Positions 3,310 to 49,200 of a stretch of DNA of 64,000 nt are shown one piece after another (within the stretch, counting starts at the first letter, position 1; each line of letters begins with the position of its first letter). The DNA comes from Lama guanicoe (lineage: Eukaryota). The notes under the pieces are model-generated. The model was given only the letters and a program-made list of their open reading frames with translations. It ran no database searches and was not told where the DNA came from. Location: the NCBI GenBank assembly GCA_013239625.1, contig MU053559.1, positions 1,304,001 to 1,368,000 on the forward strand, given 5' to 3'. The translations under genes and the position numbers were made by a program.

Positions 3310-3960
3310 GCTTACTCATTTATTCATTCCTTCTTTGTAAATATATACTGAGGGCCTGCTGTGTGCCAGGCAAGGTTCGTGGTGCTAGGGATTTAGCAGT
3401 ATGGAAATCAGATAAAGCCCTTGCTTTCCTAGAGCTTACATGGTAGTGGAGAATACAGAAAATAAACATGTAAAATATTAGGAATCAGTACTACAGAGTA
3501 TGCAATCAATAAGGCAAGATAATGTGATCAGAGGATTTGGGGGATATGCTACTTTGGTAAACTAGTAAGTGCCAGAAAGAAAGTTAAGCGGGATAAGTGG
3601 GTGGAGAGTGACTGGGGGGTAGGGGGTTATTTTATTAGATTGAGCCATAGGAAATTGCCAATATTGAACCATTTTTGACGTATAAAAATGTCAATTTCCT
3701 ATAGTTCCACTTAATAGACAAGGTGACTAGGGAATGCCCCCTAAGGGGAGTGATAATGAAGCCAAAACCTTGAATGAGAAGACAGATCCAGCCACAACTA
3801 GGGTGAAGGGCTTTCCAGGCAGAGGGAACAGAAGTGCAAAGGCCCTGTGGTGGGAAGGAGCTTGACAAGTCCTAAGAATAGAGAGGAATTTCAGGAGGGA
3901 GGGGAGATTGATCCAAGGTGAAACTGGAAACCAGGTAATGCAGGGCCAGCCTAAGGCTTT
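3310..3960. mobile_element. L2 LINE fragments
   Basis: cattcatt...tgtgccaggc...ctagagcttaca and ttccaggcagagggaacag...tgcaaaggccctg are L2 3' hallmarks. Confidence 0.65.
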
Positions 3961-4005
3961 GTCAAGCAGCAGGAAGCCCTCAATGACCTCTTCTCTTTGC
4001 CACAG

Positions 4006-4136
4006 AACCCAGACTTCCACGGTTATGACAAGGACCCCGTTGTGGACCTCTGGAACATGCGGGTCGTCTTCTTCTTCGGCTTCTCCATTGTCTTGGTCCT
4101 TGGCAGCACCTTTTTGGCTTATCTGCCTGACTACAG
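4006..4136 (+). CDS. NDUFB11: NDUFB11 coding exon 2 (transmembrane helix)
   Basis: Acceptor ttctctttgccacag|; [43 protein letters not shown](R); 131 nt; donor CAG|GTGCAT. Confidence 0.98.
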
Positions 4137-4308
4137 GTGCATGGGGTATCCAAGGGAGCGGGGTGGGTAGGGGCAGGGGCAGAGGCAGAGGCAGAGGCGG
4201 AGACTGAAGGAGACTGCCAGGAATCCTGTCCCCATACAGGAATGGGGAGCTAAGATGGGGTTGGTGTCCATTGAGGCTTCCTCACGTCTGCCATGCTGCT
4301 GCCTGCAG

Positions 4309-4435
4309 GATGCGGGACTGGGCCCGCCGGGAAGCTGAGAGGCTTGTAAAATACCGAGAGGCCAACGGCCTCCCCATCATGGAGTCCAACTGCTTCGACC
4401 CCAGCAAGATCCAGCTGTCAGAGGATGAGGACTGA
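4309..4435 (+). CDS. NDUFB11: NDUFB11 coding exon 3
   Basis: Acceptor gcctgcag|; [41 protein letters not shown]. Spliced CDS 207+131+127 = 465 nt = 154 aa plus stop. Confidence 0.98.
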
Positions 4436-4511
4436 CCGGCTGCTGAGAGGAGCTTAAGAAACACCACCTTCTCCACTCCCTGCCTCCAACACTGCCCTCT
4501 CAGAGCACCTA

Positions 4512-4517
4512 ATTAAA
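4512..4517 (+). terminator. NDUFB11: NDUFB11 polyadenylation signal (ATTAAA)
   Basis: ATTAAA 77 nt after the stop, followed by a GT/T-rich downstream element (gtgttgattttgtctttt). Confidence 0.8.
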
Positions 4518-4569
4518 GGGACTGAAAGTGTGACTGGCTGGTGTTGATTTTGTCTTTTCTGGGTATTCT

Positions 4570-25220: not shown

Positions 25221-26135
25221 TAAGCAGAACCGGAATCATACATTCTTCTCCGATATAACCTCTCAATGTGACTTAGAAAAAATCTAGACAAAACCAAGCA
25301 ATCTACTTTCAAGTAACTTGGGCCCTAAAAAAAAAAACAACTTTATTAGATTAAAGTAAATTGAAATGAAACGAAGTACTTCCATAAAAACAAGCTCGGA
25401 ATCACACATTCTTCTCCAGAGTAACTTCTCAACACCAGTTGGAATGAATCTGTTGAAACTAAGCAGTTTAACGTGCAACTAACTTAGTATCACATATTTC
25501 CTGTAAATAAATGTTTTTATGGTGAGTTAAAGCAAATCTAGGTGAAACTGAGAACTTTATTTAAAAACATATTTAGAATCACAAATTTTTTTCAAAAGTT
25601 CTATCTCGTGGCAAGATTAAATGAAGATGGAACTAAGCTGTTATGTATAAATAAGCACAGAATCACATATAATTCTAAAAAAATAACTGCATATAGTGAT
25701 TTCGTGCAACTGAAGTGGAATTAAGCAATCTAAGTGAAAACAAGCTTTGAATCACACATTCTCCTTGGAAGTAATTCCCCAGTGCAAGTCAGAGCAAACT
25801 TAGGGGCAAAGAACCTAGAAGAAGAAAAGAAGTTTTAAAACAAGCTCAGAAACTCATATTCTTTGCCAAGGAAACCAATTCTTGAAAGTTAGAGCAAATT
25901 TAGATTAATCTATGGAGTATAAGTAAAAATATGCCCAGAATCACACATTCTCCTCCAAAGCAGCTTCTTATTGTGAGTTAGAGTAAATTTAGATGAAACC
26001 CAGCAGTATTTATGAGGACAAGCTCAGTGAAAACAACATCAAAATAACACATTCTTATGGCTAATTAGAGAAAATCTTATTATTATAGACAGTATGTGTA
26101 AAAACAAGATCACAATAACACATTTTCCTGCACAG
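25220..26135. repeat. Degenerate ~88-bp tandem repeat, about 10-11 units
   Basis: Anchor AAAACAAGCxCAGAATCACACATTCT recurs at about 25233, 25399, 25487, 25576, 25660, 25749, 25849, 25938, 26042 and 26113. Confidence 0.85.
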
Positions 26136-26144
26136 TCAACATAG

Positions 26145-26675
26145 CATTGGGTTTAGGGATAATGTTAGTGTTAGGGCGATGGTTAGGTTTAGGATCAAGG
26201 TGAGGTGCGGGATCAGGGAAACAGTTAATTTCATGATTAGGATCAAGATCAAGTTCATGGTCAGAGAGTGAGGGTCACTTTTAGAATCACTATCAGGATG
26301 AGTCAAGTTTATTGCCAGGGTCAGGATTAGGGTTAGATGTGGAGTTAGGTCGGGTTCTGGGTGAGGGTCAGTGTTCTGGTTAGGTTTAAGTCAGGGCCAG
26401 GTTCATGGTTAGGGACAGGTTTAGGGTAAAGATCAAGTTTAAGGTTAGGTTAGGGATTAGGGTCAGGATTAGGGTCCTGATCAGGTAATATTTAGGTTAC
26501 AGTTTATAGTTAGCTTTGGGGTTAGGGTTTAGAGTCAGATTTAGAACCAGGTTTAGGGTTTCTGATTAATGTGAGGGTCAAGTTCATGGTCAGAATCAGT
26601 GTTGGGGTTAAGATAAGTTGAGGTCAGTGTTTGATTGTTCGAGGGTCAGGGTTAGGTATGGGTTAGAAAGAGGGC
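26145..26675 (+). repeat. Degenerate telomere-like hexamer tract (interstitial telomeric-like sequence)
   Basis: Exact TTAGGG at 26153, 26171, 26327, 26409, 26421, 26450, 26457, 26469, 26522 and 26553; many TCAGGG/TGAGGG/TTAGGT/TCAGGA variants; no CCCTAA on this strand. Confidence 0.85.
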
Positions 26676-28269
26676 CAGGAAGTTCCTTACTTGAAGTTGG
26701 TTAGTTAGCTGGCTACAACTGGGATTGGGGGGAAGTACATCTCGGGGATTGGGGCCGCCCCAGTTCCACAGCAGTCCACTTCTAAAGGGTCTCTGAATCT
26801 TCTGTGTTGGCCTCCATCGACTTTCCCCACAAACAGTCTCTGTACCCCCTGCACAGGTCCGTGGGGCCTCCCGGTGCTGATCCTGCTCCTCCTTGACCTC
26901 CCCAGGTTAAGAATTGGGGTGAGAAGACAACCAAGACTATGTTAGACAGCTAGCTATTTGCAGGTGGGGGAGCATGTTGTATGGCTTCAGATGGCTCCTG
27001 GTCTGCTGAAATTCCACCTGAAAGGCTTCTTCCTTCACTGCGGGGCCCCTGAAGGGCTCAGGTCATTTCATGTGCTATCTGATTTCTCCTCGCTGATAAT
27101 CATGGCCAGGATGTCACTGGGTTGCAGTAACATGGTTAACCTGTTGCAGTTGGAAGAGTAGTTTGGTCTGGAGGTAGGGACCAGCCCTGAATATCAGGGC
27201 ATTCTTTGAAAAAGTCTCTTCTCCCTGTGCAGAGGCTCCAGGGTTTCCTTGCGCTGGTCTCACTGATTGCAAAGGTAGGAACCCAGGGCGCCTACCCTCT
27301 GTGGAAGCCTTCAAAGGACCAGTGAGCCCGTCCTACTTCTATCTGAGTTCCCTTGCTGAGAACTGATGCTCGGAAGCAACAAGATTGAGGTGGAAGAGTT
27401 AGCCTCCTGAGGTGTGAGAAGCTTGACATGGGGCTTCTCCTAAACCGAGGAGCAGGTCAGTCAACCTTCCAGACTATGGTGTCAGAGAGTGACAATGTCG
27501 GGTGGCCGGCTGGCTGAAGAGGGTAGAGCTTAGATGAGGTTTCAAATAGTCCCTGTTCCATAGGAGGTTCCCCTGAAAGATTTCTGCACCCTTTATACTG
27601 GCCCCTGGGATCGTTCCACGAGATTCCATTGGTTTCTTGCATGATATACTGGGCCACAGATCCCTGGTAGTAATTGAAAGACGTGCTAAATGCAGAGAAG
27701 GGGGCTTCTTGGGGCCTCAGGTCCATCCAGTTCCTGCAGTGCCCCTCCTGAAAGGCCACTGCACCCACCAGGGAGAATCCAAGGGTTGACTTGTGCCATT
27801 TTCATGAATTCTTTCCTCCCCCGCATAAGAGATGAGGCTACTAAGTGGGCTACTAACCCAGGTTCAGGTTGTGTATCTAGCCAACTCTGTTGGGGGAGCA
27901 TGTGTTGGTATTTGAGTTTACCCCTTTTCCCAAGTGGGTGCTACCTAAAAGGCTTATGCACCCTTGGTTTTGGCCCCTGAGATTGTCTCAGGTCAGTTTC
28001 ACTGCTCTCCAATGTCTTCTACCCAAGAAATGAGGCTTCTAGGCACCTGGGTCATTATCTAAAGACCAACTGGCCACAGAAGGTAGGAAGGCCTTGCTCA
28101 GGTCCTCTTATTGTTCCTAGTTTTCCCGGGATCAGTCCTAAAATGGCTCTATGTTCTCTGTAAGACTCCAGGGTCTACCTTTGCCAGTCTCTCCCCTTTC
28201 TTTCCTTCTCTGCATGAGACATGGTATTATGAAATACTTGGTTGAAGTCAGATGGTTAGACAGCTTTGG

Positions 28270-28710
28270 TGGCCACTTGTGAAATTTAGGACTAAACTTC
28301 TGCAGTGAAAATCTCATAACTAAGAATGAGGACTTAGATTCTGGAGCTGAAATTGGGACTTAACATCTGGAGGGGGAGTGGAGATTTGGCCTCTGGAAGG
28401 GAAGCTGGGGAATGTAGTTGATCATGGCACAGGTTGGGAGGCAGAGGTCTTGGCTTGATTTCTGGCTGGAGAGGTCAGGACTTGGCCTCTGTGGGAAGGC
28501 TGGAACCTAGTCTCTGAAGCAAAAAAGTAGGACGTAGGTTCTGGAGCTATTTTTGTGGAGTTAGCCTCTGAAGGGGGAGTTGGGGCAGTGGTAGTTGGCA
28601 GCAGAGGTTGGAAGTTGGTATCTGGCAGGGGGATGACAGGACTTAGTGCTTGGTATGAGAAGCCTAGTGTTAGTGCCTAGCCTGAGGCCCTTGGATTCAG
28701 TGTCAAATGG
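28270..28710 (-). repeat. Degenerate 26-27-bp tandem repeat
   Basis: Minus-strand units begin CCAGA(G/A/T)xxxAAGTCC, e.g. ccagatgttaagtcccaatttcagct, ccagaatctaagtcctcattcttagt, ccagaacctacgtcctacttttttgct. Confidence 0.7.
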
Positions 28711-28720
28711 GTGCAAGTCA

Positions 28721-29174
28721 ATGTCCAGAATTATAAAGGGTCTGAGATTTTTACTCTACTTGCAAGCTAACAAGCTATCCTGTTTCATGGATGCAAGCAG
28801 AAGACATGAGACGCTGGGTTAGAGATAAAGAACTTTACTATTTGCAGCAAAAGCAGTAGCCAGCATCCTAGCATGATGTTTGAACTGATTCTTGAAGGCA
28901 GTAATACAGGTGGACCTAGATGCATGCCTGTGCACATAGTGGGTTATGTTATAGGAGAAGAACACTGAATGTGGGGGATTAATTGCTCCTATAATGAAGA
29001 GCAACAAACCCGCTTTTGGTCTGGAAGGAAATAACTACCTCATTTTTTCAAGGAAGCTTGCTATAAACACAAGTCTGAAAAATAAGCTGTGCAAAGACTG
29101 ACCTTGCATTCTTGGTATATCCAACAAGAAATGTCTAGGTACCCACAGGGATGATGAAAGATTGCCTTTTTGTA
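28721..29174 (-). mobile_element. Solo ERVL LTR (same family as 16390-16748)
   Basis: agggtctgagatttt...cttgcaagctaacaag...gcagaagacatgagac; flanked by AGTCA at 28716-28720 and 29175-29179 (5-bp TSD). Confidence 0.7.
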
Positions 29175-29799
29175 AGTCAGGATGACCAGATGACCTGCTT
29201 TGGGATTTGACAAGAGGTTCTGATTTGGGAGTTGATCTTAAGTCTGGGTTTGTAGGTTAACCAGATGTCTTGATTCACTCTCAAGCAGATGTCTTTTTAG
29301 AAGTTTGGTTGACTAGATGGCCATCTGGTCAATTAGCCAGAAAAGACCCAGATAGTGTAAGGGTTTTAATGTTTGTTATGGCGGAGGCTTCCACTTCCAG
29401 GGAAGAAGGCTAGAGCCTGGGCCCCACTAGGTTGAGTTCCTGGGTCCTGGAGACAGCCATTCTAGGGGCTTCGTATCACCTGAAATTCCAGGAGATTTCC
29501 TCCTCAAAGTCCTCAGGACACTCCACCTTGGCTCCTGCAGCTCCTCAGACATTCCATGACCATCTGATCTACCTTGAATGACCTACCTCCTCAGCCATTC
29601 CAACACTTTCACTATCTGGAAGTGAATGGGTTATGGGGCTAGCCAGCTGTAGTTGGGAGAGGCAGAAGGTGCACTATTTTGTGTATCAGACCATTCCTAG
29701 TCTTCTGAAGGTCTACAATAAAGCTCTCTACATCCTTCTTGGAATGCTGGGGGTCTCCTCACGCCAGCAAGCAGAAGACATGAGACTCTGGGTCTCTGA

Positions 29800-32700
29800 A
29801 CTCCATTGAGAGATGAGGCTGGGAAAGGACCAAGCAGAGATCAGAAAACTAGTGGATGGCAGTAAAGACTAGGGGAGAGGCTGGCTGGGACCTCAGGCCC
29901 ACTGTGCTCCTTGGAGATCCCCAATGAAAAGGCCTTTGCAGGTTGGGTTTGAGCTCAGGCATTCATAAACAATTTTATGGAGTTGCTGTTCCCAGCTCCT
30001 GACCTGCATGTGCATGGCCTGGATCCTGATTAACATACCTAAGACTTTGAGAACTGAGCTAATATTAGACCTCTTTCCTGGTCCCAGACTGACCCTTGGG
30101 TGCTACATGTGTGGGACAGTCCTGAATAACGCTGCAAAATCTGTGAAAACTGATCTGACACTGGAAACATACTCACAGAAGACAGGATGGTACTTACGGA
30201 TTGTCTGCTAAAACAAATATATCAACATTCTCCACAGGATTTAAATAAGACCTAGAGTCTCATAATGTAATATTCAAAGAGTCCAGGATACATTCCAAAA
30301 TTACTCAGCATACAAAGAACAATGAAATGTTCAATTCAAATGGAGAATGACAATCAACAGGTGCCAAGAATGAGATAATGCAGATGTTGGAATTATCTGC
30401 CAAGCACTTTAAGAGAGCTATTATAAAAATGATTGAATGAGCAATCATGAAAATTCTCAAAACAAATATTAAAATGGAAAGTACTAGAACAGAAAAAAAG
30501 ACCATAAAGATTAACCAAATGGAAATTTTAGAACTGAAAAATAAAATAACAACATCAACAAAAATCACTGGATGGACTCAGTAGCAAGTTAGAGATAACA
30601 GAGAAAAGAGCCAGCGAACTTGAAGATAGATCAATAAAAATTATCCAACTGAATAAGAGAGAAAAAATATTGAAAAAAATTAATAGAATTTCAGGAAACT
30701 GTGGGACAACAAAAAGTCTAACAGTCAAGTAATTGGAGCCCCAGAAAGAGGAGCGTGAGGTGGAAAAAATATTTGAAGAAATAATGGCCCCTCAAACTTC
30801 CCAAGTTAGGTAAAAAGCATTAGCAGATTTCTCATCAGAAACCATGAGGGCCAGAACGAAATGCACAACATTCAAAAACTCCTAAAAGGCTAAAAGAAAA
30901 GAACTATCAATTATGAAATTCATATTCAGTGAAAATAGCCTTCAGGAATGAAGGTGAAAGAAAGGCATTCACCTACGAAAAAAAAACTAGGAGAATTCAT
31001 AGACAGCATACCTGCTCTAAAAGAATTGCTCAAGGAAGTTCTTCAGACAGTCAAAAGGACATAGAAAGGAAACTTGGAACATCAGAAATGAAGGAAGAAC
31101 AACAGAAATGGTAAGTATAATAGATTATTCTTCTCTTGAGTTCTTTAACACATGCTTGATAGTGAAAAGCAAAACATTTCATACTGATGACTTTTTAATA
31201 TATATGGATATAGTATATAATGCACCTATAACACGAAGGAGGAAGGATAAAGGCACCTATATGGTGGTAAGTTTTTTAAATTCCAATTAAAGTAGTAAAA
31301 TATTGATTCTAAATAGATTATGAAAAGTTAACTATGTATTTTGTAATCCCCATAATAGTCATAAAATTTAGTGCAAATAAATATTGTCAAAATCACGATA
31401 AATACAAGAATAAGTTCAAACAATCCAGAAGAAGGCAGGGAAGGGCAAACAGGAGCAATAAATGGGGGGAGGGGGGGAGAAGAGAAAGCAAATAATAAAA
31501 TGGCAGATTAAATCCAAACATATCAGAAATTAACCAAGTGAAAATGGTTTAAACACATCAATCAAAACATGAGATTGTCAGAAAATTTAAAAAAATGACC
31601 CAACTTACTCCTGAAACTAAAACAATATTGTAAATCAACTGTACTTCAATAAAAAAGAATGATCTAACTATAGGCTAGCTATAAGAAACATCAAATACAG
31701 TGATATAGGAACTTGAAAAGTAAGAGGATGGAAAAAAAGATATACTATGCAAACATGAACCAAAAGAAACTGGACAAAGTAGACTTTAGAGTAAAGAAAA
31801 TTACCAGGGATAAAAAGAGACATCACATATTAAAGAAGAGTCAATCCACCAAGAAGACACATAACTCTAAAGCACCTAACAACAGAGTTCCAAAATACAC
31901 AAACCCCAACCTGTCAGAACTGAATAGAGAAATAAACAAATCCAAAGTTATAGCTGGAGATTTCAACACTCCTTTCTAATTAACAGAACTAGAAGACAAA
32001 AGCTCAGGAAGAATGAACATAAATACAAAACAGAAACAGACTCATAGACATAGACTACAAACTTGTGGTTGCCAGAGGGGAGGAGGGTAGGAAGGGACAG
32101 ACTGGGAGTTTGAAATTTGTAGATACTGACAGGTATGTATAGAATAGATAAACAAGATTATACTGTATAGCACAGGGAAATATATACAAGATCTTGTGGT
32201 AGCTCACAGCGAAAAAAAATGTGACGATGAATATATATATGTTCAGGTATAACTGAAAATTTGTGCTCTACACTGGAAATTGACACAACAGTGTAAACTG
32301 ACTATAACTCAATAAAAATAAAATTTAAAAAAAAATCAGGAAGGATATAAAATTGAACAACACCATCAACTGCATCTAACTGACTCCTGTAGAATGCTCC
32401 ACTCACAACAGCAGAATAGACATTTTTTTCAAGTGCACATAGAACGCTTAGCAAGACAGACCATAATAGAATTCAACCTGAAGTCAATACCAAAAAGATA
32501 ACAGTAAAATCTCCAATCATTTGGAAATTAAACAACACACTCAAAGGAGAGGTCTCCAAGGAAATTAGAAAGTTTCTTGAACTTAGCAAGAATAAAAAAT
32601 GAAATCAGTCTTTGTGGGCTGCAGAAAAAGCAGTGCTGAGAGGAAAAACTATGGCATTAAATGCTTGTTTTAGAAAAGAAGAAATGTCTCAAATTCATAA

Positions 32701-34690
32701 TCTAAGATTCCAATTTCAGAAGCTAGAAGAGGGAGGGTATAGCTCAGTGAGAGCGCATGCCTAGCAGGCACAAGTTCCTGGGTTCAATCCCCAGTACCCC
32801 CATTAAAAAAGTAAATAAATAAATAAATCTAATTATGCCTCCCACCTCCCCCGCCAAACAAAACAAAAAAGAAGCTAGAAAAAGAGCAATGTAAATCCAA
32901 ATAAAGCAGAAGGAAGAAAATCATGAAGATAAGAGGATAAATCAATGAAATCAAAAGTTGGTTCTTTTAAAAGATCAATACACTGATAAACCTCTGGCAA
33001 GACTGACAAAGAATAAAGAGAAGATGCAAATAACCAGTATCAGGGGATAAAAGGGGGATGTTACTGCAAACCTCACAGACATTATTTAAATACTATGAAC
33101 GACTCTACACAGATAAATTTGACAACTTCTATGGAAATGAGCAGTTCCTTAAAAGTCAGAAACTACCAAACCTCAGCAAGATTAAATAGATAACCTGAGT
33201 AGCCTTAAAATTATTACAGAAAGTTTAAAAGAAATCTCCAGGTCCAAATGACTTCACTGATGAATTTTGCTAAATATGTAAAGAATAAAGAACAATAAAT
33301 TAAAAAAAAAAAGAATAAATAGACCCTATCTTTTCCAGCGAATAGAAGGGACCACTTTCTAACTCATTTTCTGAGGCCAGTATTACCCTGATATCAACAC
33401 CAGACCAAGACAGTAGAAATAAAGAAAACCAGAGACCAGTATCTCTGATGACCATAGATGCAAAAATCCTCAATGAAATTTTAGAAGGTTGAATTCAGTA
33501 ATATATATAAAAAAATATGCCATCACCAAGGCGGGTTTATCCCAGGAATGCAAAAATCTATCATGTTAATGTCTAAAGAAGAAAAGCCATATGGTCATAT
33601 CAACAAATGCAGAAGAAACATTTGATAAAATACATCCAAAAGAATAATAATAATAATTTAAAAACTCTCAGCAAACTAGAGGAGAACTTTCCCAACCTGA
33701 GAAAGGGGATCTGTGAAAAACCCTACAGCTAACATCGTATTTAATGAAGATAGACGGTCTGCTTTCTCCTAAGATTGGGAACAAGGCAATGGTACCTACT
33801 CTTCCTATTCCTATTCAACATACTATTGGCAGTCTTTAGTTCAATAAGGCAAGAAAAAGAAATAAACATGTACATATTGGACAAAATAAAACTGTCTACT
33901 CATAGAAGACATGATTATATATCCAAAGAATCCCAGAGAAGCTATAGAGATACTCTTAAGAGCTAAGAAGTGAGTTTAGCAGTCATCAGGTACAAGGTCA
34001 ACCTACAAACATCAATCATACTTCCATAAATGAGCAACGAACAATTGGAAACAAAAAATATTTTAAATAATAATAACATTTATAATAGCTCCAGAAAATG
34101 AAATACTTGGAGAGAAATCTAACAAAACATGTACAAGATCTGTAGGCTGAAACCTACAAAATGCTGATGAAAGAAATCAAAGAAGACCTAAACAACTGGA
34201 AAGACACACCATGTTCATGGATTGGAAGACTTCAAATGGTAAAACTGCCCATTCCCTCCAGATTGTTCTACAGATTTACAGTAATTCCAATTCAAATTGC
34301 AACCGGATTTTGTTTTTGTAGATACAGTCAAGCTGATTCTAAAATGTATATGGAAGGCCAAAGGGACCACACAGCTATTTTCTGTAAAAGAGCTAAAACA
34401 ATTTTTTTGGGAAAACAAGTTGGAGAAATCACACTATCCAATTTTAAGGCGAATTTATAGTGACAGAAGTCAGACCAGTGGTTTCCTGGGGATGGGGGCA
34501 GGCATACAGAAGGACCAAAGGAAAGGATGACAAAGGGACACAGGGACAGTCTTGAGGGTAATGGATAAATTCATCATCTTACTTGTGCTGTTGGTTTCAT
34601 TAATGTATATATATGTCAGATTATCCAATTAAATACTTTAAATATCTATAGGTCAATTATAACTCAATAAGGCTATTTTTTTTAAAAAAG
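29800..34690 (+). mobile_element. Old fragmented L1M (5' region, ORF1, ORF2 remnants, 3' end) with nested insertions
   Basis: IAGDFNTP (endonuclease) at ORF 31713; MKEIKEDLNNWKDTPCSWIGRL at ORF 34161. A younger L1 3' end is nested at about 32010-32335. Confidence 0.88.
32729..32869 (+). mobile_element. Vic-1-type SINE nested in L1
   Basis: tRNA-like head; TSD AGAAGCTAGAA at 32718-32728 and 32870-32880. Confidence 0.9.
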
Positions 34691-34902
34691 TATTCTTTCC
34701 AAAGTGATACATTACTTTTATATCTATTAGATGGCAGTTGGAACCATGGAGTTCTGCCGAAGTGTAGGATTCTTACCCACCAGCAATATTTTAGTTTGTG
34801 AAATAACCCTATAGGAAGGTATGGTTAGCATAGCAGCATGTTTTATAAGATTATGGTGGAAATAAAAAGGACCAAATCATAATAAGCGTTACCAGACTAC
34901 TA

Positions 34903-34908
34903 TTTATT
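34903..34908 (-). terminator. RGN: Candidate RGN polyadenylation signal (AATAAA); proximal ATTAAA at 35124-35129
   Basis: TTTATT on the plus strand about 340 nt past the RGN stop. Confidence 0.6.
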
Positions 34909-35243
34909 AGCGTCTTGAAGCTTTCGGTATAGGAAGTATGGAATGCGGAATAAAGAACAGACACGGTCCCTTCCCTCTCCCCCAACGGCACCAGCAATTT
35001 GCAAAGAATCAAGAGGCTGGTTGACAGCTGAACAGCTCTTTAAATTTCTATATAATGTGTTACTGAAACCACCTGTCACCCCTTGTTAAAAATGCTCTAC
35101 CTTTTAAAAATTGTAAATAAAAATTTAATCCTGTTAATATCATTGCTCCTTTTTTTTTTTTTTGGTAACTAGACTGAAATTTCAGCTCTAGAATTTTCCT
35201 GTTGTCTTCAGAGTCTTCTCCACTAGGACAGACGGTCTGTCAC

Positions 35244-35294
35244 TCATCCTGCATAAGGATGAGGAGGAATTCCTTTGACCCCCAGGCCAGTTAT
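35244..35294 (-). CDS. RGN: Regucalcin/SMP30 last coding exon
   Basis: Acceptor tttcttttttttaacag|; ITGLGVKGIPPHPYAG*; 51 nt. Total CDS 163+183+216+132+155+51 = 900 nt = 299 aa plus stop. Confidence 0.97.
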   Translation of the reverse strand: MTGLGVKGIPPHPYAG

Positions 35295-35609
35295 CTGTTA
35301 AAAAAAGAAAAAGAGAGAAACTCTGACACATAGTAATTCACAAGTAGTCTCCAAAAGCATTTTTATGATTCACAACAATATATTTAGCCACCCGTTATTC
35401 CTGTTTTATTTCCTATCATAAAAAGGAGTTGCTTGATTAGGTATTTATTCATGGTTCAACCCAATTATTTGCATAGATAATAATCCAACTAGCAACCATT
35501 TACAGCTAACTTGGATTTAAACTTGAATTTATTTCTATCATTTTCCCATCTGTTATGAAAGGGGTTTGAGCTGGATGATTTCTACATTTCTTTTCAGCTC
35601 AAAAGGTCT

Positions 35610-35825
35610 ATCTTTTTTTTCTTGTTTCTTTTTTAATTTCAAGTTTTTGATTTACAACACTATATTAGTTTCTGGTATACAGCACAGTGATTCAGTATAT
35701 ACATATATATTAATATATATATATTTTTCTTTTTCATTACAGGTTACTACAAGCCATTGGATGCAGTTCCCTGTGCTATACAGTAGGACCTTGTTGTTTA
35801 TTCTGTACATAGTGGTTTGTATCAG
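35610..35825 (-). mobile_element. L1 3' end fragment in RGN intron
   Basis: ctggtatacagcacagtgattcag...ttccctgtgctatacagtaggaccttgttg. Confidence 0.8.
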
Positions 35826-36165
35826 CCAGGTCTATCATTATTATCACTGTTCAATTCATTGCCAAAAAAAAGTTAAGAACTTGAAAATATTCTTGTGACA
35901 CCAAAACAATCAATTAATCTTATAAACATATTTCAAACACTGGTTTTCCAAGCCTATTCTACCGATTTATAGAATTTCAACAAACACTGATGAAGCCAAA
36001 AAAAATATTTTTAAGTACTGTACAAAGTAGGCTAGACACATTGTCCTGGACTTCAGATTACTTCAGGTCTAGAAAATTTATAAGATGTTTTTAAATCTAG
36101 CATGATGAGCTTAAAATGCCAAATAGAATTGTGTTTAGGAAGTACAAAGAAGCACTAATCACTCA

Positions 36166-36402
<237 letters not shown>

Positions 36403-36719
36403 CTAGCTCTAGCAAATTTCCAACCCATGCATCATTTCGGGACCCCTTGCGGAGCAATAGGGAGGTTCCAAGGAGATCTGGAGGTCAGAATTCACCGAGG
36501 TATTTCATTTCCCTAACAATTAATTTATTTTGAGCAAAAAGACTTATCTTCTACAGGAAAAAAGTTCCAACCAATAAACTTTGGGCTCTATCTTTGGCAT
36601 TTATTCCCAAAATCATCCAATTGAGACCTTTGAATATATCTCTATATGACTTTATTAGTAATGAAGTTTCTCCAGCCCCTTAAGGTCTGGTATTTTCTAG
36701 ACATAACGGGGATTATTCA

Positions 36720-36914
<195 letters not shown>

Positions 36915-37215
36915 CTACTCAATACTAAGCATCAAACAATAAGCAATCAAGTTGATTATAAATACTGACCACTTCTGCTTATCCACGGTCTGGAATGTGG
37001 GCACTACAGGCAGGATGATTTAGGAGGATTCCTAATTCTAAAAATGTCTAGAAACAGGAGTGGGTAGCCCTCAACAAAGGATTTTTACTGCTGGATTTTG
37101 GGTGGATTCACTCCCTTTAGTTTGGGTACAGACACAGCTGTCTAAGCATTCAGAGAAGGAGACAAAAAAGAAAGGAGAATTCTTTAAAAAAAAAATCAAA
37201 GGATCTTTTTTTTAT

Positions 37216-37305
37216 GGGGGAGGGCATAGCTCAGTGGTACAGCACACGCTTAGCATGCACGAGGTCCTGGGTTCAATTCCCAGCACCTCCATTAAAAAAA
37301 TAAAT
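37216..37305 (+). mobile_element. Vic-1-type SINE
   Basis: gggggagggcatagctcagtggtacagcacacgcttagcatgcacgaggtcctgggttcaattcccagcacctcc. Confidence 0.88.
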
Positions 37306-38401
37306 TTCTTTTTGAGGCTGATCTGAGCCGAAGCCCTGCATGCCCACCTTGGATACACTTCAGTCTGCGGTTAGACCTTGCTATTTTATTTACAAAAATG
37401 CCTACTTTGATTAACTCCAAGATCTAGAAGGCTATGTGAACAGCTCATGCACAAAAACTAGTAAGATGTCTGAGTTCTGTTTCTGCCTGACTAACTGCTC
37501 CAAGATCATCTTGTCAAAATTAATATTAGAAGAGCTCATTTCTGAAAGGTATTCCAAAACCAGCTGGATGACCTTAAAGGGGGAATCATAATAGACAAGA
37601 AATAAACATCAAAATCCAAAGGAAATTTATACTACAAAAGCCAGGTCATTACAGTAACCAGATTGAGGTATGATGGAAAAAAAATGTTAAAACCTCATGT
37701 AAGTAAAATGGGTAAAAACAGTCATGAAAAAGAGCGCTACATATTTCAAAGCAAAACATCTGTGTTGGAATAGTTTGCCTCTGATTAAATCTACATGGAA
37801 GTCTTACGATTTTTTTCCACGTCATTTTTCTGATTGGTTTTGCTCCTGTGGTTTGGCAACTTTCATGAAAGTTTCAAGCACTCCCTTCTAACTTCGTCCC
37901 AATAATTCCTTCCCTCCCAGTTTCTAACCATGGCTCATTCAGAGCCCACTGATGGAGTTGAGCAATCTGTAATTACTTTTTTTTCCTTTTCCATTTGGAA
38001 AGGTTGTTAACTTGTCTTTGAGTACTTGCCTAGAGTTAACTAAATTATGAATAAGAAATATCAACCCTGAAGTCTAATTTTTTATTCTTTTGTCCTGTTC
38101 TGCTGTATATTATTTTGTCTTGAAGCATCTGTTGGTAGAACAGGACCCATTTTAAAGTCAGCCTCTTTATAGTGAGAGTTGCAAGAGAGAGGATTAAGGA
38201 GCTGACCATATTATGCCAATTGTGGTCAAACTGAGTTGTGTTGAGAGCCATGACGTGACAGGTGGCATAGCCTGTGTAATCATTACAATACTGGAATCAT
38301 AACATTGGACAGTTCTCTATTTGACAAATAAGGATTGTTTCACATGGGTTGGGGAGAGGCAACTTACTAGTCACATACATATGAAAAAAAAAATACCAGC
38401 A

Positions 38402-38820
<419 letters not shown>

Positions 38821-39199
38821 TTAGCCACACAGCATCCCAACTACACACTGTATCGTCTTCTTTCGCCAAGGCTCCTTCCCCATGATGAAATCAAGTAAAT
38901 TATTATGTAGTCCCAATCTGGGTCCTATGGGTTTTTCCCCCCCCAAATGACAACTAACCTTGCTTATAATGCAAATTAAAACTACCCTGAGAGGGTCTGG
39001 TTCCAGACATCTGCACCAACCTCATTTTCTCCCATTGAGCACAACTCTTAAGATCTGGGCAAAATGCATGGTGTAGCTTAGCTATTTGAGAACTCGGACA
39101 AGTCGGTGTCAGGCAGCTCAGAGAAGAACACAGAATTTGAAGTATCACCTAACTGGTGGCGAGTTCTCCATTTTTATCCTCCAGTCTGTCCCAGCCTGA

Positions 39200-42060
39200 A
39201 CTCAATCCAGCCTGAAACTTGGAAGTGAGCGCTGTAGTGCAGACAGAGAGCGAGCCAAGAGAAACCCTCTCTATCTGGCTCAAGGAGCAGAAACGCTCCT
39301 GAGGCTCAGGGAGAGAGTGGAAGAAATCCCCTGGTTATTTTCCACTTCTTTTTCTCCAGTTTCTCATGCACCAGTCCCCAGGCAATTCTGCAGCCAGGGT
39401 AGCAAAGGGAGGGAGGGGGCCCGCGACAGGAAACTACAGGAATCAAAACTCTGAGGGAAGGGGACATTCCTCTCTATTCAGTGAAGCTTCAGGGATGAAA
39501 GGGCAGAGTCAGACACTGTTGCTTTCATGTTTTCTTTCTCTTTCTCTCTCTCTCTCTCAACTCCTGCCAGGGAAGTGGGTGGTTTCTTGCTGGAGGAATG
39601 AAAAGGAGAGCTCCAGGAAATTGGAAAGTACTAGAAGATAGTGAAGAGGGACATTGGTCAGAAAGACAACCCTGTAAAGCTGTTTGTGATCTCTTGGGCT
39701 CACTTCTGCTTGTATATGCTTGGATCTGATTATAATTAGCACACCAAAGACTTGGAAAACGTAGCTGATGGATAGAACTTCTTCTAGGTCTCAGACTGAC
39801 CACTGCGTGGCACACACGTGGGACAGATCCTAATGGCACCTAATAGAAAGCAGGTGGGAACTTGTGGTCTGAACCTAAACATACAGATTACTTACTAAAA
39901 CAAATACATCAACGTTCTCCATAGGATTTAAACAAGACTCAGCGTCCCATAATGTAACAGTCAAAATGTTCAGGATACAATCCAAAATCACTTGGCAACA
40001 CAAAGGAGCATGAAAATCTCAACTTGTGCAGGAAAAAGAATCAACACACGCAGACGATGAGACAGCACAGATGTTGGAATTATTTGACAAAGACCAAAGC
40101 AGCTCTGATGAAAATGCTCAAATGAACAATTTGTAAAGTCTTCTTAAAACTCCAAATGGCAGCAAAGAAGTGGAAGATATAAAGAATACCCAAGTGAAAA
40201 TTTTAGAACTGAAAAATAAAATCAATGAAATAAAAAAAACCACTGGATGGACTCAATAGCAGAATAGAGATGACAGAGGATACAGTCAGAGGCTAGATCA
40301 ATAGAAATGATCCAATCTGAACAATGGAGAAAATAGACTAAAAAAAAAAAAAGAACAGAGCATCAGGGACCTGTAGGATAACAATAAAAGGGCTAACAGA
40401 TGTGTCATTGGATTCCTAGAGAAGAGGAGAAAGAATACAGGGCCAAAAAATATTTGAAGAAGTAATGGCTCAAAACTCTCCAAGTTTGGTGGAAAGCACA
40501 AAACTATAGATTTGAGAAGCTGAGTAAATCCCAAACAGGATTAAAAACCCAAAGCAACCTACACCTAGACACATCATAATCAAATCTCTGAAAACTGATG
40601 TTAAATAGAAATCCTCGAGATCAATGAAAGAAAAATGACATATTACATCTAGGAGAATAATGATTTCAATGAGTGTTGATTTTTCATGAGAAACTGTGGC
40701 AGTCAGAAGGAAGTGACCTTTTTAATTTGTTGAAAGAAAAAAAAAGTGTCAACCTAGAATTCTATATTAAGTGAAAATATCCTTCAAAAATGAAGGTGAT
40801 ATAAAGACATTCTCCTATGAAGTAAAACTAAGAGAATTCATAGCCAGCAGACCTGTCCTAAAAGAATTGCTAAAGGAAGGAATAATAGAAAGAGTAAATA
40901 TTTGAGTAAATATCATAGACTATTCTTCCCTTTAGTGCTTTAAAATATTTCTGATGATCGAAAGCAAAAATTACAGTTTCTGAGGGGACAGGGTATAGCT
41001 CAAAGTGATAGAGCACATGCTTAGCGTGCACGAGGTCCTGGGCTCAATCCCCAGTGCCTTCTCTAAAAATAAATAAACAAACAAACAAACAAACCTAATA
41101 CCCCCCACCCCCAATTTTTTTTAAACTAAAAAAATGTTTTTAAATGTTAAAAAAATTACACTTTCTCATTGGGTTTTCAATCTATGTGTATAAAGACAAC
41201 TCTAACATAAATGAGTGATTACCAATTAAAGTGGTAAAATATTGGCTCTAGATAGACTGTGAAAAGTTAACCATACATTTTGCAATCCCTTCAGGAACCC
41301 TTACAAATCTATACAGAGAGATATAGTGAAAAATCACAATAAATAAATTAAAATTGAGTTCTAAATAATGTTCAAATAACCCCCAAAAAAGTCAGGAAAG
41401 GGGAAACAGAGGAACAAAAAATACAGAGGGAGAGAAGAGAAAACAAATAGTAAAATGGTAGATCTAAGTCAAAGCGTATCAATAATTATATTAAGTGTAA
41501 ATAATCTAAACACATCAAGAAAGAGATTGCCAGAATAAATTGTTTTTGAAAATAGAACCATACACTGCCAACAAGAAACTCAGTTCAAATATAATGATAT
41601 AGGTAGCTTAAAAGTAAAAGAATGGAAAAAGATGTATCCTATGCAAATGTTAAAAGAAAACCGCGTAGAGGCTATGTTAATGTCAGACAAAATAAAATAG
41701 ATTTAGAGGGAAGAAAATTACCAGAGGTAAATAGGGGTACTAGATACGGTGAAAATGGTCACTTCACTAAGGAGACATAATAATCCTAAATGTTTATGTG
41801 TTTAACAACAGAGCTTCAAAATATGCAAAGCCAAAGTCAGGACTGAAAGGAGAAACAGACAAATCCATAATTACGGTTGGAGACGTCAGCATCCCTCTCT
41901 CAATAACGGATACAAGTTCGTAGAAAATCAGCAAAGAAATAGCAGAACTGAACACCATCAACCAACTGGATCTAAGTGACACTTATAGAACATCCCATTC
42001 AAAGACAGCAGAAGATACATTCCTCTCAAGTGCCCACGGAATAGTCACTTAGATAGACCT
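39200..42060 (+). mobile_element. Old L1M 5'/ORF1/endonuclease remnant, related to the 29.8-34.7 kb element
   Basis: 39895-40000 aligns by eye with 30205-30310; ggagacgtcagcatccctctctcaata is endonuclease-region text. Confidence 0.8.
40982..41150 (+). mobile_element. Vic-1-type SINE nested in L1
   Basis: tRNA-like head; flanked by AAAAATTACA(G/C)TTTCT direct repeats. Confidence 0.88.
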
Positions 42061-43249
42061 GAGTGTGATCTCAGGGGACAGAACAGATTTTTGACATCCT
42101 GAAGAAACTGGAAAGCTCATTTACTATACTGTGCTCCATTGGAAAGAAGAATGAGTCAGAGGAAAATGGACTGAAACTTGGAAGCCTGAATAGCAAGCAA
42201 GACAGGATAAATCCTCCCTCCCTGTTTTCTGCTATAAGGCAGTTGGGTTTGTTTCATTAATATTCTGGCCCTGTTCACTCCCTTCCCTGCTATCTGCCTT
42301 AAGGAAAAGAGATGCCTGGAATATGAATGTGAATACCCCGCTGCTTGGAAAGGGCTCTTCCATGGTGTGAAGGGACAACCTGGAGCCCTGGTTTATGCAT
42401 CATTATCTCATAGTGAGCCCAGACAGGTGAGGCCTTGGGTGTGGGGACACCTTCAGGGTATTACCCAAGACTGAGAGACGCCACCTAGATGATCAGATGA
42501 CCCCACCATTTTCTGGGCCATGGACAGCGCTCAACGTCTGCTGAAGTCTATGGGCTTGCTCTAGAAAGAGGTTCTCAGATGCTTCTGACAGATGCAAAAT
42601 GATGCCTACAATTTTAAGGGGTCTCAAGAGGGCACAGGTTAAGAACTAGGGACTCCAGGCTAAGAACTCAGGCCTCTGACATTTTAATTTTGTCTTACCA
42701 AGAGCCACAGAGCTGTAAACTTCTAGTCATAAGGGAGAGAGAAAATCAATTTCAACAGGAGGTAGGGTATCCAATCATATTTCTTCATCCCGCATTCATT
42801 ACTGGCAGAATGGCTTCCAACAGATTCTCACCTCTAATCTTTCAACCTGTCCTGGACTATATCTTTGGTTGTTTAAAGTCCAAGCAGGTGGGAATCAATC
42901 CACAGCCAGCTGCCCAGATCTCACCTACCTTCCGTGTTGAAAGTGAATGGAGCCAGGACAGCATGGCTGATGATGTGAGGGGCAGAATGGGGAGGTGGAA
43001 ACAGCAGGGATTTAGAATCCACTTTGGCTAACTACAGGGTTGTTAGGATGGGAGGTAAATGAGAATTCAATGTGAAATGCATTATTTCATTTCAAACTAG
43101 AATTAAAATTCATTTAAAGCTGTATATGTCATTCTGTAGCCATCATAATAAAGATGGCTTCAGGCAAGAATCATCAAGGAATGGAAAACCTAAGGGAGAA
43201 AATTGATGAGGACCAGGATCCTTGCTTGGACTTCAAGTATCTCCCCACA

Positions 43250-43740
43250 TTGCAGCCAGCCTCCTGGATGGCCCCTCATGGTCCCTGCCTCCCAGTATTT
43301 ACACCCTTGTCTAGTCCCCCCTCCATAACTGTATGACCAATGGCACATGGCAAAGTGATGTTATGTCACTTCTGAGATTGGTTATGACTGTAGCTTCCGT
43401 CTTGGGTGTCCTCTCTCTCTCATCACTGGCCCTAGGGGAAGCCATGTCCCAGGCAGCCCTCTGGAGAGGCTCATGTGGTAAGAAATTGAAGCCTCCTGCC
43501 ACCCCCCATGTGAGTAAGCTTGGAAGCAAACCCTCCAGGCCCCTTCAGAAACTCCAGATCCTTCCAAGGCTGTAGCCCCAGCCAACATCTTGACTGCAAC
43601 TTCATGACGTAACCTTGAACTATCCAGCTAAGGCACCTAAATTCTTGACCTTCAGAAACTATGTGAGATAATAAATGTTTGTTATTTTAAGCCACTAAAT
43701 CTCAGGGTAATTTGTTACACAGCAATAGATCACTAACAAA
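43250..43740 (+). mobile_element. MaLR MLT1 LTR
   Basis: gccccagccaacatcttgactgcaac...cagaaactatgtgagataataaatgtttgttattttaagccac...cagcaatagatcactaaca. Confidence 0.82.
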
Positions 43741-44490
43741 CCCCACAAAATGCTTATAAATTGCAATTAAAAATAGTAACAATGGAGTGGAGAAATCCAA
43801 GACCTCAACTGGATGATTAAAACTAACATCACCGACGAGGGACAGATGGTATCCAGATGGGATACCCTGAGAAGGACAGAGCATCACCTATGCGGTGATT
43901 CTAGCCATGAACGTAGAGCATCAATCTAATCACCAGGAAACATGAGACAAACACAAAAACATAAGGAACATGAGGAATATTCTATGAACAAAGAGGGGAG
44001 TTGGGTAGGACTGTATTCTTCAAAAATGGCAATGTCATAAAAAAAACACACAAAGAAATGCTATGTCCTGTTCCAGATGAGAGAAGATTAAAGAGAATGA
44101 CAGCTAAATACAACATATAATCCTAGACTGGATCCTGTACTGGGTAAGGGGGATGCTCTAAAAGACATTACCCAGTGAATTGACACAACTGGGATACAGA
44201 TAGTGCATCAGACACAATGACTGTATAACGTTAAACGTCTTTAAGTTGATTACTGTACGGTGGTCATATAAGAACGTGTCTTTTTTTTTCTTGGGAAAGT
44301 CACACCGAAATATTTTAGAGGTAAAGGCACATGATATATACAGCTTATTTTCAAACAATCATAGAGAAAAATGTTTATAAATATTGAGAGAACAGATGGA
44401 ACGAAATGTTGACAACAGGTGACTCTATGTACAGGATTTGTTTGCTCTGTTCTTACCTTTTTTGCCCCTGTAAATTTGAAATTATTTTCA
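43740..44490 (+). mobile_element. Old L1M 3' end
   Basis: atcctagactggatcctg...gaaatattttagaggtaaagg...tgtaaatttgaaattatttt. Confidence 0.65.
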
Positions 44491-44731
44491 ATTGAAACAG
44501 CAACAACAACACAACCTCTATTTAAAAACTCATTGAAACTACCAAAATACTGTACAAATTTTAGTCTGCTAGAGATAGAAATTGAAAGGAATAGCTATGA
44601 AATTTTTCTCATTGATTTTTTTTTTGGATACAAGTGACTCAAGTAGTTAGTTATAAGAGAAGAACTCAAGACTCATTATGAATAATTCTCTTACCACTGC
44701 AGCTGTGAGACTTTTTTAAGTCCTATTCCGG

Positions 44732-44857
44732 GGGGTGGGGGAGGAGGGCATAGCTCAGTGGGAGAGCGCATGCTTAGCATGCACAAGGTCCTGGGTTCAG
44801 TCCCCAGTACCTCCATTAAAAGTAAATAAATAAATAAACCTAATTACCCCCCACCAA
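44732..44857 (+). mobile_element. Vic-1-type SINE
   Basis: tRNA-like head; TSD AAGTCCTATTC at 44718-44728 and 44858-44868. Confidence 0.9.
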
Positions 44858-44877
44858 AAGTCCTATTCTGGTCTTCA

Positions 44878-45171
<294 letters not shown>

Positions 45172-47023
45172 TCACCTGGCATCTTTAAGGGGATGCAGCT
45201 CTTTTGACGATTGGGAGCGCTCCCTTCTTTCTGTTGAGTAGTGAGGGCTACATCACTGAGTATATTCATTGAGCATGAACTCCATATGCCGTTCTGGGCA
45301 GCAGAGGTTGAAAGATGAAGGAAACCCAATTCCTCTGGAAGCTCCCAGTCTAATGGGAGAAGCAGAGAAGTCAAACCACAGCAGCCACCATACACTGGGG
45401 CAGGCGCCACCGCAAGTTCAGAGGAGAGGTTGCTAATGGGGGTGGGGTGGGAGGGGGAGTGAACCAGAGCCCTAGTCACAGAGCAAGCGATGCTCAGTTT
45501 GCCTGATCTTCAGAAAATTCAGAGACACAAACTGTTTAGTTCCAGCAACTAGATTTTGTGACAGCTCTCTCTCCCTCCAACACAGGACTTGTCTTTTTTT
45601 TTTTTTTAATTAGGACTCATCTTTTTTAAGGGGCTCTCTTTCCTATGTATTGAATTGAAAATTGTTTCTCAAATCCTTTTTGGAAGTAAGCATGATTAAA
45701 AAAATAATAGAAATGTACCTGCAGTGATTAAAAAAATCACTTCATTATACCACATTTAATATATTTAAATTTAAGGTTTTCTGGGTTTAATATTTTTCCA
45801 AGTATAAGAAAACCTCTTATTTTTTAAGTGGAGAGACTGATTACCATGGTGAGGTAATTAGTTCATCAGAATGTGTCTTGAAAACATTCCCTAAGCACCT
45901 ATTCAGTGCAAGATGCTGCGTTCTTTGGGAGCAACTCTTCACTAAAAGCCCTGCACGGAAGTTGACTCAAGCCATTGAATCCCAGGGCAGGTGCAGGACA
46001 CTATTAAGAGGGTAACATTCTCATCAGGGATCCCAACCTGTGGCCTGAGGCTTCTGTTAGCTTTTAAGCTGCTGCTGACGCCACAAGCCCTTTCCATGGT
46101 TTTTTTGTTTTGTTTTTGTTCTGTTTTGTTTTGTTTTTTGCAGAAGAGGGCTAGGAATCTACCCCTAACCTGTGCGTGCTGGGAAAGAGAGACTAGAGAA
46201 GGCGATGGGTCCCTCCTCCCACTCTGACCACAGAGGGTTAGTCACTTCGCCTCTAGCCACAGTCATGTGCCGGGGTTAATTAAAAGCTGTTCTCTCTCAT
46301 TAAAAGAAGAGTTTGATATCATATGATATTTTCATTGCTCTTTCTGGTTTGTTTCACTAGACTGATGATACATCAGAAATTGACACATTGTAACTGACTA
46401 TGCTTCAATTAAAAAAAATGTTTGAAGTCCCCAGTTCTGGGTTGAGAGAGAGAATATCCTAAGGTCACAGGGGTTCCTGGTATCTCTTTCCCATGAATGC
46501 AATAATGAAAATAAACATCTTGATTGCTAGCCAAGCCCCATACCCTTGGGCTATAGAATGTGATAAACCCCTCCTCTGGAAATCCCAGGGTCATAAACAG
46601 AATCACATTCAAATGCACTCGAAATTCCTTCATGCATCTTATCTTGCATAGTGAACAGAAAGTCCTGGTTAATGCTTTATAAGAGCTCTTCTCTGCACAT
46701 TCAAAGAAGGGATACAGCTGTTATTTTTCTGCAAACTAAGGTCTTGGCCTGATCCATGGTAGAGGGCCTTTGCTGTGCCACAAACCAGGTCTCCGACTTT
46801 CAACGCTGTTATTTGAAGGTATTAAGGAAAAATCCTACCATGACTCATCCTCCAAAACAAAATGGAGAATGTTGCCCCAGGACCAGCAGCGAAGAGGATG
46901 GTATTGACCATCCAGAATCTACTCCTGGATCAAAGTAGGGGACACAGAAAAGATGACAAGCCAAGAGTTTTAAAGCATATTCAGTACATTTTACCAAGAA
47001 GGTCCTGGAGGAACGACATATTA

Positions 47024-47482
<459 letters not shown>

Positions 47483-47614
47483 TTAAAATTAGAACTGGAA
47501 AGGCTGGACACTTTCCCCAGATCAGAACAAAATATGTAATGTAACAGGAGGAGACGTATGAGAAAGAAGTAAGAGCGGATAGGCCATAACACAAGAGATC
47601 TTCAGTCAACTTAC

Positions 47615-47718
47615 CAGCACTCTTTTTTTCCCCCAAGCTTTCTTGAAAAAAGAGAGGGAGAGAGAAAGCAACACTCCGAAACCCACACCTTGGCGCTTGT
47701 GACCCTCAGAGAGAGCTG
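47615..47718 (-). other. RGN: Probable RGN non-coding 5' exon
   Basis: Consensus donor CTG|GTAAGT at 47615/47614; TATA-like CATAAA at 47749-47744 about 30 nt upstream of the inferred start. Start is inferred. Confidence 0.65.
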
Positions 47719-47719
47719 G

Positions 47720-47900
47720 CTGTTCAGACAAGGCAAGGCTCCCTTTATGTCAGCATTCTAGCCCCCAGGGCAGGTCAGGGGGCGGGCAGCTCCCTCATTG
47801 GTGGCCCCTCTGGGCGTCTGCAGGGTCACCTTATCCTGCCGCCCTTCCCTATCTGTGGATGTTGTGGGTTGCCTTCTCTGACTGCTCAAAGGCCATAGTT
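47720..47900 (-). promoter_or_regulatory. RGN: Candidate proximal RGN promoter
   Basis: TGCTGACATAAAGGG (MARE/AP-1-like half site plus CATAAA) at 47755-47741; GC box at 47779-47787; DR1/HNF4-like TGCTCAAAGGCCA at 47883-47895. Confidence 0.5.
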
Positions 47901-48599
47901 TCCTGCTCTGCATTTTTCTGAGCTGCATTTTTAGAAATATGCCCACCAGTGGTAATGCACTAAATAGAGCTAACATCCATTTTCAAATTCAGACAGTGGA
48001 AAGGGGGGAGAAAAGGACATTGTAGGGGCATCATTGTAGGAACTGACAGCCCCTCAGCTAGTTCTTGCTGCCTAGGAAGGCACTGGGCCAGTGTGGCAAG
48101 GAGTCTTGAACTCCAGAGGCAGGAACATTCTCTGTTGGTTGTGACTGGGTAACAGGTAGAAGAAAACAAAAACTTACCGGAAAAGAAAAACAGAATCCTT
48201 ACCTAAGAAACCCATGTGGGAGAGGAAACACAGGTAACTTTCAAGAGCCTTCTCTCTTTCCCCAACTCTGCCCTAATGGTGATCAAAATTGCCTGCCTCT
48301 TCATCCTTTTGCCTGACAACTAACTGATTTGAAGTCAGTGGTCCCATGCATGGATGGGTAAATTAATGATAGGGGTAAAAGGGAAAAATAATCTTTGGTT
48401 TAATATTTCCTTCAGTAAACCGCCTTTTTTTTTTTTAAAGAAACTCACAGCTGACATCATCCCCAAATACTGCCTGCTGGCGCCGGAGTATTCGCAATCC
48501 TCACTGGCTGTTAAAAATTGTCAAAGACTCCAAAGATCTTCCTGCTATCAATCTGAGATAAGGCCCAAGGTCACATGCGGGACTTTTGCAATAGCAGTT

Positions 48600-49200
48600 T
48601 TTAATCCCACGCTCCGTCGTGCAAGGCGAGGGTCGGGGGTGGGGAGGGAGGAAAGGGCTGGCAAGTGTCCGTTTTCTGCCCCGGCTTCAGAGAGCACTGC
48701 GAGACGGGGCCGAGGCCCGGAACCGGTGGCCCGGCGGGGACGCAGCGGCAGGTGGCCGCGCTGCGCGGGGATACCGCTGCGGCCGGGGCTCCTGGCACCC
48801 GCCGTTGGCGCGGCTGCGGCCTCGGGTGACTGCGGGGCCCCGGGGAACTGAAGATCGCGCCCGCCCGGTCCCCAGCCCGGGTGGCAGAGAGGGTCGGTCT
48901 CCCTCCAGCCGCGCGGGTTTGGGGAGTTGGCTGTCGCCAGACGGTCCCTCTCCCGGGGAGGGGGTTGGGGGGCGGGCTCAACCCGGACACTCACCAAGCT
49001 GGTGACTCGCAGGCGGCTCGAGGTCAGGTGGCCGAGCAGATGGCCGAGCCGCCCGGGCTGGGGCTGGGGGTGGGGCTGGGGACCGGCACCCCCACGCCTT
49101 CCCCTCCTTCGCGGCTGCAAGAATCCAGCAGAGCCACCCGGGCAGGGCGGTGGGGCAGAGGCTTCGAGCCCAGCGGACCTAAGCCTTGGAGTTTGGACGG
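48600..49200. promoter_or_regulatory. RGN: CpG island upstream of RGN (likely alternative promoter)
   Basis: Dense CpG, very GC-rich, about 1.4-2 kb upstream of the start codon. Confidence 0.8.

Follow-up and report, generated by a model that had tools for sequence, protein, structure and literature searches.

A decayed one-strand TTAGGG-type tract between NDUFB11 and RGN as a candidate fossil chromosome end at the X-conserved/X-added boundary

The boundary of the X-conserved region (XCR) with the X-added region (XAR) has been mapped only to an interval between genes, and the mechanism by which the two were united (centric fusion or chromosome-end joining) rests on cytogenetics. In the available excerpts, PMC3820666 places the XCR/XAR border between RGN (on opossum chromosome 7) and RBM10 (on the opossum X), PMC3472169 likewise supports a boundary at the NDUFB11-RGN interval, and PMC5094562 dates the X-added fusion to 166-105 MYA. 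An elephant centromere lies at the boundary, and a Robertsonian (centric) fusion has been suggested (PMC3820666, PMC5094562; excerpts). The 64,000-nucleotide stretch of DNA analysed here (the window) contains the NDUFB11-RGN interval, 30.6 kb long, and within it a hexamer-periodic tract that an earlier note had proposed to be a fossil telomere left by the fusion. The question is whether this tract is a relic of a chromosome end or a repeat of another origin. No earlier report of such a tract at the boundary was found in the open-licence literature, in which a search also gave no placement of RBM10/NDUFB11 with respect to the end of the marsupial X; the excerpts of PMC8327908, PMC5852568 and PMC5615350 hold nothing on the sequence of the seam, and that of PMC8327908 gives no boundary genes.

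Table 1. Features of the window from NDUFB11 to RGN (positions counted from the first nucleotide of the window)
Feature	Position	Strand	Basis
NDUFB11, X-conserved side of boundary	2228..4520	+	Pfam ESSS, E=1.5e-9, at 2228-2488
Old L1	20000..25210 (limits approximate)	-	RVT_1, E=7.4e-12, at 21817-22266 (-); negative AT skew at 20-25 kb
Degenerate tandem array	25221..26138		11 units, consensus 89 bp, autocorrelation peak at lag 89
Degenerate telomere-type hexamer tract	26145..26675	+	83 units, consensus G[G/T/A]T[T/C]AG
Dead gene-like DNA, ~3.4 kb	26690..30100	-	By eye, SPATA31/FAM205-type last exon
Presumed LTR-type repeat interrupting the dead gene	28722..29125		P0006 and P0008 match 28706-29160 at 35-46%
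Presumed old L1 with later SINE insertions	30200..34700	+	Positive AT skew, L1-like reading frames
RGN, X-added side of boundary	35100..49000	-	Pfam SGL, E=8.3e-17 and 1.1e-6, at 38.5 and 47 kb

The features of the interval are listed in Table 1, and the Pfam domains at its two ends bear out the gene order (NDUFB11, tract, RGN) that the earlier note had given. The 3' end of NDUFB11 was set by inspecting the sequence, and the roughly 20 kb from the gene to the tandem array consist chiefly of old repeats, the last of which is the minus-strand L1; it is presumably the 5' part of this element that adjoins the array. The satellite-like array described on the proximal side of the tract was recovered as 11 units with a mean pairwise identity of 0.57 and an identity to the consensus of 0.51-0.87, abutting the tract on its NDUFB11 side, that is, 5' of the G-strand. 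A 6-bp period is absent from the array, the 64-kb window holds no further copies of it, and no inverted repeats occur in 24.8-27 kb.

The tract itself proved real in every respect that had been claimed for it from inspection. Word counting gave 10 exact TTAGGG, all on the plus strand and spanning 26153-26558, together with 30 hexamers of at most one mismatch in 26145-26675 (mean 7.7 and maximum 17 in 1,000 base shuffles), while the minus strand of this segment has no such hexamer. Autocorrelation maxima of 0.505, 0.468 and 0.458 were obtained at lags 6, 12 and 18, against about 0.2 off phase, and phased segmentation resolved 83 units with a mean identity to the telomere unit of 67% and a longest perfect run of two. 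On both strands of the window, a phased profile trained on the tract itself scored 253 for the tract and 17 for the runner-up stretch, and TTAGGG is depleted in the window as a whole (35 occurrences versus 47 in shuffles); this is the sole such tract in the 64 kb. TRF did not report it as a single array. An assembly artefact is unlikely, since in 18 of the 24 sequencing runs listed 0.79-0.98 of the words sampled from 25200-28700 are present; excluding five possible-source rows and one same-sample row leaves 12 rows from six studies, four of which are without a flagged row. Two rows with small shares (0.06-0.08) were given no weight. The runs containing these words fall under four closely similar organism codes, and none of the matches listed is an RNA run.

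A present telomere-like function is unlikely, because the tract holds one TRF-type half-site only, no (TTAGGG)2 and no canonical G4 motif; on the same grounds a role as a G-quadruplex/shelterin platform was rejected. No current function is evident, and the tract is probably functionless. Its column frequencies are G.71, then G.50/T.26/A.23, T.84, T.44/C.42, A.84 and G.64, with counts of 37:35 in the T/C column, and the change from T to C at this column (35 of 83 units) greatly exceeds that at the adjacent T (5 of 83; Fisher p=6e-9). Known variant units occur among the others (TCAGGG three times, TGAGGG three times and TTGGGG twice), and overall the tract is 33% diverged, with about two mismatches per unit.

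Neutral decay with indels was simulated in 150 runs per starting array, followed by identical realignment. From a pure TTAGGG start, neither the T/C asymmetry nor the excess of G-to-T changes was reached (0/150 in each case), while a 50:50 TTAGGG/TCAGGG start reached the T/C asymmetry in 6/150 and the G-to-T excess in 0/150. The tract is thus not simply decayed pure TTAGGG, and amplified variants such as TCAGGG are needed; the variant units would have been amplified before the array died, and one exact telomerase insertion that did no more than age (the short-ITS model in the excerpt of PMC2246262) is thereby ruled out. A mix of this kind is compatible with the variant-rich proximal part of a telomere or with a subtelomeric block, and equally with a minisatellite. 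A short telomere-like seed, produced by slippage or telomerase-assisted break repair, may have expanded locally in a repeat-prone intergenic region once the fusion had taken place, with variants of its own, in which case its position at the seam would be coincidental. The failure of plain decay in the simulations, the uneven T-to-C changes and the shortness of the longest perfect run all favour such an origin, as does the abundance of interstitial telomeric sequences (ITS), of which a mammalian genome contains hundreds to thousands, mostly attributed to break repair (PMC6410037, excerpt). According to the excerpt of PMC2246262, however, short ITS are inserted exact, and in primates those older than 6 My show about 0.3 mismatch per unit, compared with about two per unit over 530 bp here, and three coincidences (seam position, polarity and the abutting satellite) would be required. 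We regard a local minisatellite as unlikely.

Against the known kinds of ITS, the tract appears to behave like a fusion-site or subtelomeric one, and it belongs neither to the head-to-head or short break-repair types nor to the muntjac type in its strict sense. Short break-repair ITS (PMC2246262, excerpt) resemble it in being one-sided and interstitial with unique DNA on one flank; they comprise at least four units with mismatches below one per unit (0.1-0.4) in an exact insertion, whereas the tract is much longer and more diverged and an exact founding array was rejected. Degenerate and variant blocks of subtelomeres (PMC6410037, PMC2246262; excerpts) likewise carry exact and degenerate units in tandem on one strand, including TCAGGG, TGAGGG and TTGGGG; in contrast to these blocks the tract is now interstitial, and its former terminal position is putative. 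The head-to-head ITS of human 2q13-q14 (PMC6410037, excerpt) is also made of degenerate telomeric repeats, interstitial and linked to a fusion, but the tract has no inverted CCCTAA arm opposite its TTAGGG units, far more decay and its single TRF-type half-site. A further comparison is offered by the one-sided fusion sites of the Indian muntjac, which are reportedly young. As described in the excerpt of PMC2760882, these sites combine single-polarity TTAGGG, beside a tandem satellite and at a synteny break, with variant repeats next to canonical ones, all of which is also found here. The muntjac satellite, however, is that of the partner chromosome's centromere, lies distally and extends over 12-105 kb (PMC2760882, excerpt), whereas here a 0.9-kb array lies 5' of the G-strand, the distal neighbour is gene-like, divergence has reached 33%, and the place of the synteny break is resolved to no better than 30 kb. 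The tract does lie within an interval of broken synteny, as expected of a fusion-site ITS, at a resolution of 30.6 kb only. From the 714-2,920 ITS per human genome given in the excerpt of PMC6410037, the chance of an ITS in an interval of this size is 0.7-2.8%, a rough figure that counts tracts detected by repeat finders; as TRF misses this tract, the true rate may be higher.

The reading that we tentatively favour, while holding it short of probable, is that of a fossil end, most likely of the X-conserved block, joined to a broken end. The 89-bp array would then be a relic subtelomeric satellite, and the tract the variant-rich proximal zone of a telomere, composed of TTAGGG with amplified TCAGGG and GTTTAG-type units and pointing away from NDUFB11. 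End-joining to a broken, non-telomeric end would have made this zone internal and left a one-sided tract abutting a truncated gene, followed by neutral decay to its present functionless state. The depth of that decay is about 0.34-0.49 substitutions per site, a value that depends on rate ratios that we assumed and on tandem arrays, which are poor clocks, and the divergence of the 89-bp array is about equal to that of the tract. At the mammalian rates that we assume, this depth would be consistent with a fusion at 166-105 MYA. The position in the boundary interval, the one-sidedness, the proximal tandem array, the decay depth and the variant units all fit a fossil end, which could, with the same reserve, account jointly for position, polarity, array, variant mix and age. 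The fossil telomere originally proposed is partly supported: position, polarity, proximal array and decay depth fit it, and the column pattern speaks against plain decay of pure TTAGGG. Several observations weigh against a fossil end: the searches gave no orthologue of the tract; the G-to-T excess was reproduced by neither starting array, including the TTAGGG/TCAGGG mix; about 3.4 kb of dead gene-like DNA and an L1 intervene between the tract and RGN; and the published model is centric, with the elephant centromere at this place (PMC3820666, PMC5094562; excerpts).

The absence of an inverted CCCTAA partner, which had been raised as an objection, is confirmed as an observation but is weak as an argument. 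RGN adjoins PLCXD1 in frog (903650 versus 892943), chicken (134230905 versus 134185341) and zebra finch, and PLCXD1 is today the first gene of human Xp (PMC3472169, excerpt). This ancestral adjacency suggests an internal break, and not a telomere, at the RGN end, so that head-to-head telomeres would not be expected and a one-sided tract would be the expected remnant of joining to the X end. The same adjacency implies further rearrangement, and the junction seen today may therefore mark the breakpoint of an inversion instead of the original seam. In supplement 1 of PMC3472169 (excerpt), PLCXD1 is followed by a CHST7-RGN block in frog and by SLC9A7-RGN in chicken and finch, but in human this block occupies the other end of the X-added region; every fusion model has to account for this circular permutation.

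The unique-looking DNA immediately on the RGN side of the tract has the character of a dead gene. One minus-strand frame of 26.7-30.2 kb, with X in place of stops, was used as a phmmer query and matched five proteins, the four checked being ORFs from assembled sequencing runs; neither phmmer nor word searches gave a named protein for the flank, and no Pfam family was detected in 26690-30100. The clusters P0004, P0005 and P0007 match 27.6-30.1 kb, with 45-71% amino-acid identity in the best pieces and shifting frames. Judged by these identities, the flank is old, dead DNA common to other organisms. Distant homologues were found only for 27.6-30.1 kb of the flank and not for the reading frame at the tract junction, and a search of metagenomes for orthologous DNA passed one of 427 candidates, a chance match without DNA similarity. 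The P0007 cluster matches both strands, and the homologous DNA in another organism seemingly carries an inversion. Within the flank, 28329-28379 and 28529-28580 form a 52-bp internal duplication (79%), and a 97-bp stretch at its far end (30029-30123) matches 39735-39831 in an RGN intron at 73%, probably as an old interspersed repeat.

When the minus frames and P0004 were compared by eye with the SPATA31 alignment in supplement file 10 of PMC5338094, a colinear resemblance to family motifs was seen: LSP.F.S.I at ~28.36 kb and LP.RVQ at ~28.17 kb (in P0004), followed by I.S..KS at ~27.09 kb, QHRE.P at ~26.88 kb and, at 26.69 kb, Q.RN. This final motif lies, by eye, about 60 residues upstream of the family's C-terminus, so the gene would end truncated at the edge of the tract. 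Chaining six family motifs along the flank gave no significant result: the minus strand scored 111, a value also attained in 16 of 200 shuffles and in 4 of 64 other stretches, and the plus strand of the flank scored 114. A SPATA31/FAM205-type last exon cut at the tract edge is therefore taken as a likely lead for 26690-30100 and not as a result. An X-linked fossil of SPATA31/FAM205 between RGN and NDUFB11 would be noteworthy by itself.

Two further origins for the tract involve this dead gene. Array, tract and broken testis-type gene may have been imported together as a subtelomeric duplicon, or may have met at its insertion junction, an origin that we consider quite unlikely; the true X seam would then lie, with equally little likelihood, elsewhere in the interval, for example beneath the L1 at 30-35 kb. 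Such an import would explain array, tract and truncated gene together and without a seam, and it would suit a family that is prone to duplication, on chromosome 9 in human and chromosome 13 in mouse (PMC5338094), as well as the degenerate TTAGGG blocks found within subtelomeres (PMC2246262, PMC6410037; excerpts). It is weakened by the age of the flank that its distant homologues indicate, by an identification of the flank as SPATA31 made by eye, and by the lack of any known source locus. The tract may, in the second case, be part of the dead minus-strand gene itself and resemble a telomere only by mimicry, whether it was intronic, belonged to the 3' UTR or encoded a low-complexity tail of the Pro-Asp/Asn type. 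It begins no more than about 15 bp from the last by-eye family match, one donor-like site lies at 26693, its unit is coding-like, and on the minus strand this unit presents the branch-point motif CTRAY 30 times; the mouse Spata31 C-terminal tail also carries a short repeat (PMC5338094). Yet every reading frame through the tract is interrupted by 9-27 stops, the gap lengths are for the most part not divisible by 3, neither an exon nor a domain was found downstream, and the donor-like bases fall on the coding match made by eye. The long exon of SPATA31 is, moreover, the last coding exon of the family (PMC5338094). An origin within the gene is very unlikely on this evidence, and the intronic alternative raised in the earlier note found no positive support.

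The fossil-end reading can be carried one step further, to the position ~26,680 as the exact X-added seam. The ancestral therian X, or its X-conserved block, would then have left its subtelomere in the array and its telomere in the tract, which we think somewhat unlikely, and the autosomal break would have cut, on the RGN side, a SPATA31-like gene, which is held with similar doubt. If true, placental mammals would share, at a fixed coordinate, a relic telomere of the fusion site with an age above 100 million years; it would show how long a telomere fossil can last and would make the question of mechanism directly testable in existing assemblies, the exact-seam reading arguing against a purely centric fusion. 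Otherwise the tract is an ordinary decayed interstitial repeat. It is a real and old tract of a familiar type whose location is uncommonly informative.

Between the dead gene and RGN lies what we take to be an L1 (30200..34700), and the repeat interrupting the dead gene is assigned by us, from its appearance, to the LTR type; the SINEs in the window look camelid to us. The only structured RNA in 25950-36500 is a tRNA-like SINE at 32733-32802. The last coding exon of RGN is presumably 35246-35297, as recognised from its translation. A relic of a lost X copy of PRSSLY was dropped as a candidate, as no protease domain was detected in the 226 of 318 ORFs (at least 45 aa) that were scanned and no convincing trypsin motif was seen; the excerpt of PMC9178871 names no genes neighbouring PRSSLY. 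On the NDUFB11 side, about 15000-16700 shows no Pfam match and presumably represents an old ERVL-type internal fragment, and no gene was found at 14250-14750, an isolated, intergenic CpG-rich patch (GC 0.53, CpG o/e 0.65) with promoter-like boxes. Runs of N occupy 1333-1460 and 51244-51394 of the window.
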